NCBI GenBank assembly: GCA_964646575.1
Contig: CAZYFT010000001.1
Coordinates: forward strand, 8,118-72,117
Length of the DNA stretch: 64,000 bases
Direction: 5' to 3'
Origin: an uncultured Candidatus Saccharibacteria bacterium
GTDB lineage: Bacteria > Patescibacteriota > Saccharimonadia > CAILAD01 > GCA-016700035
Of this stretch, positions 54,562 through 57,383 are shown in pieces. How positions within the stretch are numbered: position 1 is the first letter of the stretch; the number at the start of each line of letters is the position of its first letter. The translations under genes were made by a program, and so were the position numbers. Below the pieces are notes generated by a model. The model made no database searches and was not told the DNA's origin. It saw only the letters and a program-made list of their open reading frames with translations.

Positions 54562-57383
54562 AAATAGCAATTGCTACACTTAATCGATACTTGAAAAAGC
54601 CACGATCAACCGACGAAATCGTGGAGCTTATGGCGCGCACAGAAATTGAGGTAGAGGAAATTATTCGCTCGGATAGTTTGGATGCAAAGATTATTTTAGT
54701 GAAGACTGTTGAAGTTGAACCGCATCCCAATGCCGATCGACTTCGCCTTGTGACGGTAACAAATGGCACAGATAAGATTAGGGTTGTGTGCGGAGCGCCA
54801 AATGTTACGGTTGGTCAGCGCGTTGGTTTGGTGCAGCCGGGTGCAAAATTGCCAGACGGAACAAAGATTGGTGTATCGAAGATCCGCGGCGAGGTTTCGC
54901 ATGGCATGCTCGCAAGTGCTCAGGAGCTTGGCTTGAGCGATGATCATTCTGGCATCTTTGTTTTTGAAGAAGACTCACATAGGCTCGGTACATCATTGTG
55001 CGACATTGTGTTTTTCGGGGATGTGCTAGACATAAAGACACCTGCAAATAGATGGGATTACCTAAGTGGGGTAGGGCTAGCGCGCGAATTGGCCGCCCAT
55101 GATGAAGGGCAGGGGGTAGTGGAGCCCGCAGTTGGCGAGTATTCATATAAAAACACCGACTACGTAAATGTCAAGGCGAGGGAAGAGAATAGACGGTTTG
55201 TTTCGGCGAAACTCAGAGTTAAGAATGATGTAAAAAGTCCTGCATGGCTTGTGGATAACTTGGCGGCGAATGGAATCGCCACTCATAATCCAGTTGTTGA
55301 TATTACAAACTTTGTGATGCTTGAACTTGGTCAGCCGAGTCACGCCTATGATGCTACAGCATTGACTGGCCCACTCGAGGTTCGCTATGCCGAGAAAGGT
55401 GAAAAAATTACCACACTCGATGATGAGACGCGTGAATTAACCGAGCAGGATCTTGTTGTATGCGATGCAACTGGTCCGGTTGGCTTGGCTGGCGTAATGG
55501 GCGGAGCTTCTAGCCAAATTGGGATAGAAACTACCGAAATTGTACTTGAGGCTGCACACTGGGATAAGTCGTGCATCCGCAAGACTGCTGTGCGACACGG
55601 TTTGCGCACGGAAGCTTCGTCTCGGTTTGAGCGCCCTATCCCACTCCCCTTGCCACAAAAAGCTTTTTCAAGACTCTTAGATTTGCTCACAGAAATTTGT
55701 GAAGCTGAAATTATTGAAGGACCGTATGATCAGCTGCATGGCTGGCCGTGGCAACAATTTTTGGGCGTTCGAGTTCGTCAAGCCGAACGGTTTTTGGGGA
55801 TTACTCTGGATGAGAAGCAGGTTGTTAAGGACCTAAAGAAGCTAGGATTTTCGGTTGAGCACTTCTCTATCACTAAAGAGCTGAGAAGCCATGTCGGAAA
55901 ACCATATCGTTGGGGTGCGAATTTTCGTCAAGATGGCGAGGAGGCCTTTGATTGCTCATATCTGGTGGATCGCATCTATTCTAAGCTTGGTATTTTTGTT
56001 GGTCATACGGCCTTGGGGCAAATTCATACAGGTCGACCAGTTGAAGCAAACGAGCTCAAGCCTGGAGATGTGTTGTTTTATGAGGGGAAAATTGAGAAAT
56101 CTGTAACTGATCATTATTATTTAATGAATCCTGATGGCACTAAGACCAGATACGATCTGGAGAAGCCAGAAAAAGTTGGACATAACGGCATTTATCTAGG
56201 CGGTGGCCAAGTGGTTCAGGCAGCGCAGTATAAATACCAGCAGGGCGAATGGGTGCGTCGCGATGAGGGCGGTGTGATCATCTCCCCCGTTGAGGAATTT
56301 ATCGAGAACCCCGGCTATCTGGGTGCGCGGCGTTATGTTGAAAGTTTCAATCATATTCTGGCGGTAGAAGTCCCCTGGTGGCGCAGTGACATTCGCTTAG
56401 AGGCGGATATGTTTGAGGAGATTGCCAAGTTGGTTGGATACGACAAGATGTCCGAGACATTGCCTGATATCGCGCCGATGCCGGATTCTAGCCAGTCGCC
56501 ACTAGTTGCAATGCGTGAATTGCGCCGGCGGTTGAGACATATTGGAGGCACCGATGTCGCAACATACAGCTTCATATCAGAGACCGACGCCAAAGCCTCT
56601 AAGTTAGCCATCGATAGTTTGCCTACGGTAGCTAATCCACGCTCCCCTGAACAGAAATATTTGCGGTCTGATCTACTGGCAAGTCATCTGACGATGTGGC
56701 AAAAGAATAGCGTATCTAAGACTGGTCAGGTGGCCTTTGAGCTTTCTAGGGTTTTTGATGGCTCGGGCAGAGACGGCAAGCTACCTAAAGAAAAATGGGT
56801 GTTGGCAATAAGTACTCATGGATCGGACTCTTTGAGTCAATTGCAGGCGTACGTACACCATTTCCTGGCTGGCCTACATGTACAGGCAAAGTTTCAAGTT
56901 GATGAGCGTGCTGATGACAGGTTGGTGCCTCAGCGATCGGCACAGCTGATGGTCGGTGGTGCTAAGCTTGGTGTAATTGGTCAAGTAAGTACTCCTATCT
57001 GGAAGCAGTTCGGCCTCACTCAACCTGCTAGTTATTCACTTCTTGATATTAAGGTGCTTTTGGAGGTCATCGCTACACCACGAGTAAAAACACTCCCAGA
57101 TTATCAGTTGGTACAGCGAGATATGAGCCTAGAAATGAGCGAGGTAACGAGCTGGCAGTCAATTACAGAAGTTGCACTTGAGCAGGCTGGACTCGTAAGC
57201 TGGGAATATCTATCCAGTTACCGCGATGCTGAACTTGAGCAGGCTGGACGAAAGGTAATCACGATAAAGGTAAGATTTGATCTTGGCCCGCGCCCAGAGG
57301 CAAGTGAGATTACGCGTATAGAAACAGACTTGGTGGCTGCATTGCAGTCTGTCTGTCCGTCGGCCGAGTTAGTGGTTCGGTAA
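54558..57383 (+). CDS. pheT: Phenylalanyl-tRNA synthetase beta subunit. Carries a ~160-aa NlpC/P60-type cysteine peptidase domain inserted within the B5 domain (residues ~441-598).
   Basis: PheT modules are all present: tRNA-binding domain ([14 protein letters not shown]), B3/4 ([26 protein letters not shown]), B5 ([27 protein letters not shown]), and FDX-ACB C-terminus. The protein is 941 aa versus ~800 aa typical. The insert carries [10 protein letters not shown]...GDVLFYEG...[15 protein letters not shown] (NlpC/P60 Cys-His-His). Confidence 0.9.
   Translation: [941 protein letters not shown]

Follow-up and report, generated by a model that had tools for sequence, protein, structure and literature searches.

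An NlpC/P60 domain nested in the B5 domain of the phenylalanyl-tRNA synthetase beta subunit of Saccharibacteria and Paceibacteria

Aminoacyl-tRNA synthetases rank among the most highly conserved proteins known, and the additional domains that they carry have been thoroughly catalogued. Why, then, would an essential synthetase subunit carry a cysteine-peptidase domain? This question is raised by the pheT gene in a stretch of 64,000 nucleotides from an uncultured Candidatus Saccharibacteria bacterium (contig CAZYFT010000001.1), hereafter the window, which encodes a beta subunit of phenylalanyl-tRNA synthetase (PheRS) of 941 amino acids (aa). A sequence-only reading of the window had located a domain of the NlpC/P60 type between the two halves of the B5 domain of this protein, and had taken it for a permanent insertion, distinct from an intein, of a kind seen in the candidate phyla radiation (CPR). 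Here, we describe how an essential synthetase harbours a domain of a known enzyme family in a nested arrangement for which no earlier description was found; this arrangement is conserved across major Patescibacteria lineages. Coordinates refer to the 64-kb window unless preceded by an L-number, which denotes a fetched locus; P-numbers denote PheT homologues.

Nesting of the insert in the B5 domain of PheT

The two PheRS genes of the window lie in tandem on the forward (+) strand. The gene for the alpha subunit, pheS (53560..54561, +; 333 aa), is an open reading frame (ORF) with Pfam matches to tRNA-synt_2d (305.8 bits) and Phe_tRNA-synt_N, and its stop codon is overlapped by the start of pheT (54558..57383, +) in the sequence ATGA, as checked on the nucleotides. 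The ORF list gives pheT as a single unbroken reading frame. The NCBIfam model TIGR00472 (pheT_bact) gives its product 517.5 bits (cutoff 402.65) over two stretches that flank the insert, and it is between these stretches that partial matches to NCBIfam models of the RipC, RipA/B and MepS types fall. The order of Pfam domains is the canonical one for bacteria: tRNA_bind (aa 48-140), the B3/4 editing domain (B3_4, 191.5 bits; aa 213-382, 55194..55703), a split B5, tRNA_synthFbeta (92.4 bits) and a weak FDX-ACB match (19.4 bits, below its gathering score). By Pfam and fold, the catalytic-like module (aa 633-829) and the FDX-ACB anticodon-binding domain (aa ~847-941) together occupy 56454..57380. 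An AlphaFold2 (AF2) model of the full-length protein has a predicted local distance difference test score (pLDDT) of 90.2, and a Foldseek search with this model against the Protein Data Bank (PDB) returns 27 bacterial PheRS beta chains over ~970 columns, with E values from 1e-65 to 1e-51.

The beta subunit has two 'DNA-binding-like' domains of the helix-turn-helix type, and B5 is one of them (PMC3275996). The Pfam match of B5 in the window protein falls into two stretches, the second of which (aa 596-628) corresponds to profile positions 35-67. Pfam, the alignments and the AF2 model place the N-terminal half at aa ~395-436 (55740..55865, +); its last strand, FSVEHF, makes up the first arm of the wing hairpin. 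The C-terminal half, delimited by Pfam, conservation and the model, follows at aa 600-632 (56355..56453, +) and includes the ten-residue second strand of the same hairpin. Between the two halves lies the insertion relative to canonical PheT, aa 437-599 (55866..56354, +). When the protein is aligned to solved PheRS beta chains, aa 432 pairs with residue 443 and aa 600 with residue 450 of the S. haemolyticus PheT 2rhs_B, and ~167 residues stand in place of a turn of ~6 residues. In a multiple alignment, the PheTs of Patescibacteria that have no insert read LGF.V..-(2-3 aa)-..L.V.VP..R.DI at this hairpin, and the window protein reads LGFSVEHF, followed by aa 437-599 and the 13 residues that resume the hairpin. 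In the full-length AF2 model, strands 432-435 and 600-605 flank the insert, which is itself modelled at a pLDDT of 87-95 except for a value of 77 at aa 521-530.

The insertion is hence in the hairpin wing of B5, directly before the conserved PWWRxD...D..EE segment, and the NlpC/P60 domain is nested at the tip of this wing, between the B5 halves where the sequence-only reading had put it. Because the N- and C-termini of the insert meet at the position of the hairpin turn, the host beta subunit stays intact.

The residues on which the host depends are in place. In Thermus thermophilus, the editing site comprises Thr249, Asn250, His261, Gly315 and Glu334 (PMC3275996). These align (1b70_B/2iy5_B) with T250, N251, H262, G312 and E331 of the window PheT; Q320 is the equivalent of T. 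thermophilus E323, at a position that is also variable in other bacteria. Among 106 homologues, H262 and G312 are invariant and T250 and E331 nearly so, as are, around the insertion site and beyond it, F436, P606, W607, R609, D611 and E620 (all invariant) and D617 and E621 (nearly invariant). The acidic cluster formed by D611, D617, E620 and E621 we take to be the Mg2+ site of the alpha/beta interface given in the UniProt annotation of PheT. Since the editing residues and the acidic cluster of B5 are conserved and the fold matches that of solved beta chains, the host is intact, and nothing suggests loss of the normal PheT role. With the editing residues intact, we rejected the idea that the insert provides a replacement editing site for a decayed B3/4 domain. 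A tRNA-binding role deduced from charge was likewise unsupported, the inserts of Paceibacteria being acidic with a median pI of 5.8.

Could the long gene be an artefact, such as a frameshift fusion or an assembly chimera, or the product of an intein or a recent selfish element? The unusual length of the ORF is the sole point in favour, and we regard this explanation as virtually out of the question. The frame is continuous, as the sequence-only reading had stated, and four sources supply hundreds of independent contigs with the same architecture, at 40-95% identity, which together rule out a frameshift or a pair of genes read as one. GC content and skew are unremarkable and continuous across the insert, and among close relatives the insert is the most conserved part of PheT. 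No Hint, Intein_splicing, LAGLIDADG or homing-endonuclease family matches PheT at E<=1 in Pfam. The junctions, F436|S437 and N598-H599|I600, leave no extein nucleophile after the C-terminal junction, and their residues are incompatible with protein splicing; an intein or mobile element is ruled out on these grounds, again in agreement with the sequence-only reading. In contrast, a real intein was detected by like annotation in gyrB (10386-13646; 1086 aa, with Intein_splicing) of L086, the locus of P0375, a PheT named Candidatus Nealsonbacteria by NCBI. The same locus has, upstream of pheS, a separate ORF of 220 aa (L086:4452-5114) with a weak match to LAGLIDADG_3.

Fold, active site and conservation of the insert

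By profile, fold, triad and pocket, the insert is an NlpC/P60 domain (Pfam PF00877, MEROPS C40). NLPC_P60 matches aa 447-519 at 46.5 bits in the full PheT and at 53.4 bits when the insert is searched by itself, both above the gathering score of 23. The match spans only profile positions 1-67/68, because a hairpin of 30 residues (aa 511-540) separates the GDVLF strand from the strand bearing the histidine; the second half of the domain is recovered by alignment to 8er5 and by fold. The domain core is aa 442-597 (55881-56348, +). Among the sequence matches of the insert in the PDB are NlpC/P60 proteins, including 8er5 and the RipC chain 8idc_E. The segment that the sequence-only reading had proposed, 55878..56351 (aa 441-598), is the NlpC/P60 domain, and the motifs it had named, KPYRWG, DCSYLV (with Cys466) and a 23-residue stretch with His542, are all present in the checked translation and codons. 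Its additional description of the domain as CHAP-like fell away: neither the window protein nor the insert alone has a CHAP (PF05257) match at E<=1. What the insert holds is a genuine NlpC/P60 domain.

An AF2 model of the insert alone, built with 26 homologous inserts, reached a pLDDT of 93.5 and a predicted template modelling score (pTM) of 0.89, a confidence that indicates an autonomous domain. In this model, a helix (residues 29-38 of the insert) begins at the cysteine and the strands bear the histidine, in a papain-like alpha+beta fold; the structure prediction that had been proposed as a check for an independent papain-like domain with its catalytic Cys and His thus came out in favour. 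A Foldseek search of the insert against the PDB gave 59 matches at E<=0.001, and the 50 listed are NlpC/P60-family peptidoglycan hydrolases. They include MepS (8xud, 8xup), Acd24020 of C. difficile (7cfl; template modelling (TM) score normalised by target, 0.80-0.84), a diffocin hydrolase, NlpC1 and NlpC2 of T. vaginalis, SagA, LytE, CwlO, RipA and RipB. MepS and Acd24020 are the closest structures among the matches listed.

The extra beta-hairpin (aa 511-540; 56088..56177, +), with strands at 519-523 and 529-533 around the stretch of lower pLDDT, is missing from the shorter inserts of other Saccharibacteria and, judged by these alignment gaps, is lineage-specific. It also explains a spurious result. 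The PDB sequence search returned the designed 'Cake' and 'Scone' beta-propellers (best E value 8.7e-11), which we rejected as summed weak matches to individual blades with no single significant stretch; they arise because an 11-residue run of the extra hairpin resembles the repeated blades. Multi-stretch matches in the search of cluster representatives (for example P0144, with 13 stretches) were set aside as the same summing of weak matches.

The putative catalytic triad consists of Cys466 (nt 55953-55955), His542 (nt 56181-56183) and, at the third position, Gln554 (nt 56217-56219), all verified at the codon level. Cys466 lies in the segment that also holds the S1 pocket (55905..56012, +), and the other two residues span 56181..56219 (+). 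In the NlpC/P60 enzyme YkfC, the S1 pocket for gamma-D-Glu is built from Tyr226, Trp228, Asp237, Ser239 and a small residue at position 257, with Arg255 in a hydrogen-bond network (PMC2954226). The equivalents in the insert are Tyr450, Trp452, Asp465, Ser467 and Ala485 (for Ser257), and His483 takes the position of Arg255 at the same 17-residue spacing from the cysteine. Tyr, Asp, Cys, Ser and His are essentially invariant across 36 inserts of Saccharibacteria, 58 of Paceibacteria and 46 free-standing relatives, and the third triad residue is His in 53 of the 58 Paceibacteria inserts. As far as sequence can tell, these pocket residues are the signature of a gamma-D-glutamyl amidase, with no evidence for any particular larger substrate, and the domain is apparently an active cysteine peptidase.

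How the insert has been maintained was followed in the 120 best PheT homologues (121 sequences with the window PheT), drawn from independent assemblies of NCBI, JGI, ENA and Logan. All 120 carry the insert at this hairpin, at 40-95% identity, and the full-length ones measure 871-952 aa; their records bear names such as 'Candidatus Saccharibacteria bacterium', 'C40 family peptidase' and 'phenylalanine--tRNA ligase beta subunit-related protein'. In every bin, the insert is more similar to its counterpart in the window protein than the remainder of PheT is, with identities of 99% against 94% in the closest relatives, 84% against 68% at 60-90% overall identity, 67% against 53% at 50-60%, and 50-51% against 42-46% in the most distant relatives. 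In these most distant sequences, conservation of the insert is on a par with that of B1-B2 and falls slightly short of that of the B3/4 editing domain. Such identities are those of a domain under strong purifying selection, overall no weaker than that on the editing domain. Cys is kept in 108 of the 121 sequences, His in 109 and both in 107, and the third triad position is more variable (Gln in 37, His in 22, Glu in 20, Met in 17 and Thr in 10).

Both Cys and His are lost in a subclade represented on many contigs (P0105, P0107-P0110, P0113-P0116, P0118-P0120; L090:6001-8649), in which PheTs of 871-885 aa have a shrunken insert of 113-128 aa. Here the insert is 31% identical against 43% for the rest of PheT, with G503-D504 and R592 still invariant, and no compensating NlpC/P60 gene was found within 6 kb of these pheT genes. 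Because constraint collapses where Cys and His are lost, catalysis appears to be the selected trait in most lineages.

Distribution, free-standing relatives and gene neighbourhood

The architecture extends beyond Saccharibacteria. With the insert as a query against 1.84 billion cluster representatives, the PheTs of Saccharibacteria were followed by a second class of 770-860 aa, which has no N-terminal tRNA_bind domain and carries NLPC_P60 at the same position in B5. Both Cys and His are present in 28/28 tabulated members, and the third position is His in 26/28. A scan of one genome per GTDB species, using two insert motifs taken from a 12-sequence insert alignment, gave 180 confirmed sites, of which 80 were kept for analysis. 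These belong to Parcubacteria/Paceibacterota (Portnoy-, Jorgensen-, Terry-, Campbell-, Wolfe-, Staskawicz-, Nomura-, Lloyd-, Zambryski- and Brennerbacteria), with one Candidatus Microgenomatus; the organism labels of metagenome-assembled genomes are partly automatic and some are wrong, such as 'Gammaproteobacteria' on contigs whose PheT clusters with Parcubacteria. At about 60 of the 80 loci, the insert lies within a PheT ORF and is flanked by the two halves of PheT, and insert-bearing PheTs of Paceibacteria reach 955 aa (770-955 aa overall). The survey of related genomes that had been suggested therefore found the insertion in 120/120 best homologues and in many PheTs of Paceibacteria/Parcubacteria, and this recurrence bears out its description as a permanent insertion of the CPR/Patescibacteria kind.

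The nearest relatives of the second-class PheTs are a mixture of insert-bearing and insert-less proteins (the latter 660-700 aa), named Patescibacteria or Candidatus Nealsonbacteria, and insert-less PheTs with a clean hairpin of a 2-3-residue turn are the closest relatives of the insert-bearing Paceibacteria PheTs. In neighbour-joining trees of the domain (135 columns), the inserts of Saccharibacteria are monophyletic with 80% bootstrap support, and those of Paceibacteria form a group together with the free forms (65%) in which inserted and free forms are intermixed; the union of both groups against generic NlpC/P60 domains has a bootstrap value of 29%, that is, no support. That the two groups share the identical hairpin as insertion site suggests a single ancient insertion, with losses and fissions afterwards.

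A free protein of 140-160 aa from the same NlpC/P60 subfamily is encoded at 16 of the 80 loci. A profile of the free forms retrieves 5,358 proteins, the best 120 of which are all 136-171 aa long and come from Patescibacteria. In the free forms examined, the protein opens directly with the initial helix of the domain and a signal peptide is lacking, and no SH3b family matches PheT, the insert or the free relatives. There is, in short, a Patescibacteria family of leaderless NlpC/P60 proteins, encoded either within PheT or as free genes for proteins of 140-150 aa.

In Paceibacteria, this family has a recurrent neighbour. A Peptidase_C39_2 gene lies directly 3' of the insert-bearing pheT in at least 20 loci and within 2 kb in seven more, and directly 3' of the free NlpC gene in L039, L050, L073 and L077. 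The C39_2-like proteins are leaderless and 175-195 aa long (L017:5451-6035, L050:4423-4947, L039:4426-4965, L077:2031-2606), and gave no informative match in the PDB or NCBIfam. Both C39_2 and free NlpC/P60 genes are absent near insert-less pheT, where gyrB follows instead. A search for a C39_2 homologue in the 64-kb Saccharibacteria window found none.

Seven of 18 small NlpC/P60 copies lie within 4 kb of pheS. In L009, L039 and L049, a free copy is found ~0.9 kb from a pheS-pheT operon whose PheT has no insert; these three loci are the only ones in which the replacement of the insert by a free copy within one genome was seen. In L021, L050, L073 and L077, the small copy adjoins a gene for a 379-382-aa protein with tRNA-synt_2d and FDX-ACB domains (L050:2537-3676 (-), L073:1275-2414 (-), L021:2014-3162 (-), L077:108-1253 (+)), which is the architecture of the monomeric mitochondrial PheRS (PMC3275996). 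These proteins score just under the NCBIfam cutoffs for 'PheS-related mystery ligase SrmL' (249.5 against 300) and pheS_mito (247.2 against 258.35). In L077, the stop codon of the monomeric PheRS-like gene is overlapped by an ORF of 241 aa (L077:1253-1975 (+)) that consists of a B5 domain with the NlpC/P60 insert and nothing else, and the C39_2 gene then follows. The acidic residues of its C-terminal B5 segment are partly substituted, and it looks like a PheT remnant after loss of all other parts.

Other free copies are remote from pheS-pheT, one beside rpsT, murJ and lepA and another 3' of ftsE-ftsX; pth and hisS lie near the free copies in L020 and L045. The same NlpC/P60 subfamily is also fused, in one case each among the 80 loci, to the epoxyqueuosine reductase QueH (L007:768-1736, 191.8 bits; on a contig of only 3 kb) and to a pyridoxal phosphate enzyme of the SelA family (L022:266-1927, 350.3 bits).

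Downstream of pheT in the window, Pfam identifies a 476-aa L,D-transpeptidase (57512..58942, +) with PG_binding_4 and YkuD domains and an N-terminal membrane anchor. Across Saccharibacteria, this gene keeps its place behind pheT, with the same gene order in all five loci fetched (L087-L091). The gene order of the whole region is conserved in these loci, and its adjacency to pheT hence carries little weight. Two genes 3' of pheT, in all Saccharibacteria loci examined, is an ATPase resembling a type IV secretion coupling protein (59326..61818; 830 aa; DUF87/HerA, TrwB and TraG-D_C matches; DUF8128 in annotated relatives), which is accompanied by a small ORF (59000..59329). On the other side of the operon, a gap of 840 nt (52263..53101) between trpS and a small membrane ORF upstream of pheS has reversed GC skew, and contains no ORF of 55 aa or more and no Rfam match at E<=1. 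Other Saccharibacteria (L087-L091) have a gap of 0.8-1.4 kb, likewise free of genes, at the equivalent position, and that of L088 is 72% identical to the window sequence over 256 nt and 79% over 113 nt, while the PheTs are only 54% identical. The window gap also has a palindromic match, and is a candidate for a structured non-coding RNA or leader. Rfam places a bacterial class A RNase P RNA (16736..17121, 215 bits), a tmRNA (30560..30962, 103 bits) and two tRNAs (5697..5770 and 14999..15072) elsewhere in the window; beyond these, the 64 kb gave no Rfam match at gathering thresholds.

Possible functions and significance of the nested domain

What might a cysteine peptidase do inside PheRS? About half of our confidence goes to a cytoplasmic amidase of the gamma-D-glutamyl type, carried by PheT as a stable host and probably serving muropeptide salvage. 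PheRS is a cytoplasmic enzyme and an export signal is missing from every member of the family, so the substrate would be found in the cytoplasm as well, most likely as a peptidoglycan peptide or precursor containing gamma-D-Glu. CPR epibionts are amino-acid auxotrophs, and could in this manner recover D-Glu and diamino acids from muropeptides, whether their own or those of the host. The domain may act as a gamma-D-glutamyl-diamino-acid amidase by analogy with YkfC and DPP VI, two cytoplasmic NlpC/P60 enzymes, a class that takes part in murein-peptide recycling (PMC2954226). PheT would mainly be a stable, constitutively expressed carrier, with aminoacylation and editing as in canonical PheRS, and the C39_2 protein may provide a second papain-like step of the same pathway in Paceibacteria. 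That insert-less PheTs are the nearest relatives of insert-bearing ones, and that free copies occur away from pheST, points to independence of the domain from PheRS.

The likeness to known enzymes is partial. With YkfC of Bacillus subtilis and DPP VI (dipeptidyl-peptidase VI) of B. sphaericus, the insert shares the papain-like NlpC/P60 fold, a Cys-His-polar triad, the S1 pocket (Tyr, Trp/aromatic, Asp, Ser and a small residue) and a cytoplasmic location without signal peptide. However, these two are free enzymes with an N-terminal SH3b domain that recognises the L-Ala N-terminus (PMC2954226), whereas the insert has none, is nested in a synthetase subunit, mostly has His in place of Arg255 and has the extra 30-residue hairpin near its active-site strands. 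It falls outside the SH3b-bearing YkfC subfamily, which it may resemble in function. The closest structures among the matches listed (MepS/Spr, Acd24020, SagA, LytE/CwlO and RipA/B/C; E values 4e-08 to 1e-04, TM by target 0.66-0.84) are DL-endopeptidases, which are also the closest matches in sequence and which, like the insert, have minimal single NlpC/P60 units of ~120-140 residues. Yet these enzymes are exported and act on the sacculus, anchored or regulated by lipoprotein signals, by LysM, SH3b or coiled-coil domains or by FtsEX, while the PheT insert and its free relatives have neither an export signal nor a wall-binding domain.

Several observations weigh against a salvage amidase in a neutral carrier. 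The assignment of the substrate rests on pocket residues that are common to most NlpC/P60 enzymes, the SH3b domain with which YkfC and DPP VI read a free L-Ala N-terminus is missing, and Arg255 of YkfC is replaced by His483 in most Saccharibacteria. The third triad residue is Gln, His or Glu in 79/121 sequences and Met or Thr in 27/121, and 12-14 sequences without Cys and/or His still hold the insert, which may have a non-catalytic value that retains this remnant. Finally, a host taken at random would predict a weaker link to PheRS than the one observed, given the 7/18 copies near pheS and the B5+NlpC mini-ORF of L077, and the QueH and SelA-family fusions do occur.

The main alternative is a functional coupling of the peptidase to PheRS, in which the Cys-His site would act on a PheRS product or substrate. 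It might be a second editing site that deacylates mis-acylated or unwanted aminoacyl-tRNA(Phe), or might hold Phe from Phe-tRNA or Phe-AMP as a thioester and pass it to an acceptor in the fashion of LRAT-type acyltransferases. The domain keeps company with PheRS in three gene arrangements (within PheT, free near an insert-less pheS-pheT, and, free or as a B5+NlpC mini-ORF, beside a monomeric PheRS-like gene), and if Patescibacteria genomes are assumed to be ~0.5-1 Mb, chance adjacency to pheS should be rare. The fusions to a SelA-family protein and to QueH, which modifies tRNA, would also fit, as would the proximity of pth and hisS to free copies. We nevertheless consider such coupling quite unlikely: the B3/4 site is intact and needs no replacement, the pocket is the standard gamma-D-Glu pocket of DL-endopeptidases, the acidic inserts of Paceibacteria are unlike a tRNA-binding module, many free copies are remote from pheS, insert-less PheTs function in close relatives, and the adjacency could be a relic of fission or fusion. 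Nor do we know of any NlpC/P60 enzyme described as acting on tRNA esters. A similarly low probability attaches to the broader idea that NlpC/P60 and C39_2 form a Patescibacteria-specific module tied to PheRS, either as a papain-fold aminoacyl-tRNA(Phe) hydrolase or Phe-transferase or by coupling muropeptide salvage or the status of cell-wall precursors to tRNA(Phe) charging; were it true, the association would outlast even the swap of the heterotetramer for a monomeric, mitochondrial-type PheRS-like protein.

Alternatively, the insert could mainly be a structural or regulatory pseudo-enzyme that stabilises or regulates the PheRS heterotetramer or binds a partner, with its catalytic residues a dispensable inheritance. 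The Cys/His-less subclade (for example the P0109 cluster), which keeps its shortened insert with G503-D504 and R592 unchanged, speaks for this, as do the Met and Thr residues at the third triad position and the contact of the insert with the B5 strand and the helix bearing the conserved acidic cluster. We judge it unlikely as a general account, since Cys and His, together with the whole pocket, are kept in ~107/121 inserts of Saccharibacteria, 58/58 of Paceibacteria and 46/46 free copies, constraint collapses where they are lost, the same domain exists as a free protein without PheT, and its clean deletion to a short turn is tolerated in Paceibacteria. A structural role fits the Cys/His-less subclade and not the remaining lineages.

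Hydrolase domains within synthetase polypeptides are familiar from the B3/4 domain of PheT itself, the YbaK-like INS domain of ProRS, the N2 domain of ThrRS and AlaRS/AlaX, and the INS domain is, like the NlpC/P60 insert, inserted into a loop of another domain. Those known to us all have folds dedicated to tRNA editing, with no papain-fold cysteine peptidase among them; unlike them, the NlpC/P60 insert coexists with an intact canonical editing site. Within the CPR, insertional domains are reported in the RNA polymerase subunits beta and beta' (PMC11515920), and insertion sequences or elements bearing homing endonucleases in rRNA genes (PMC11270868). As reported, these are likewise clade-specific, located in essential information-processing components and patchy within the radiation; compared with them, the PheT insert is a recognisable enzyme with a conserved active site that also exists as a free gene. 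Full-text literature searches found no description of the PheT-NlpC/P60 architecture, in line with the claim of the sequence-only reading that it was undescribed; in databases, though, it was already visible as precomputed Pfam strings and inconsistent product names.

The insert is a signature of all Saccharibacteria-type PheTs sampled and of many from Paceibacteria. As such, it is a phylogenetic marker and also a marker for annotation, several of these proteins being named 'C40 family peptidase' or 'PheT-related protein' by NCBI. Its inserted, free, B5+NlpC remnant and catalytically dead forms make up a natural experiment in domain nesting and fission, in a group of which the Saccharibacteria are now genetically tractable (PMC10187176). 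For the biology of these organisms, a leaderless, cytoplasmic NlpC/P60 family, joined in Paceibacteria by a C39_2 partner, points to salvage of muropeptides or gamma-glutamyl peptides.

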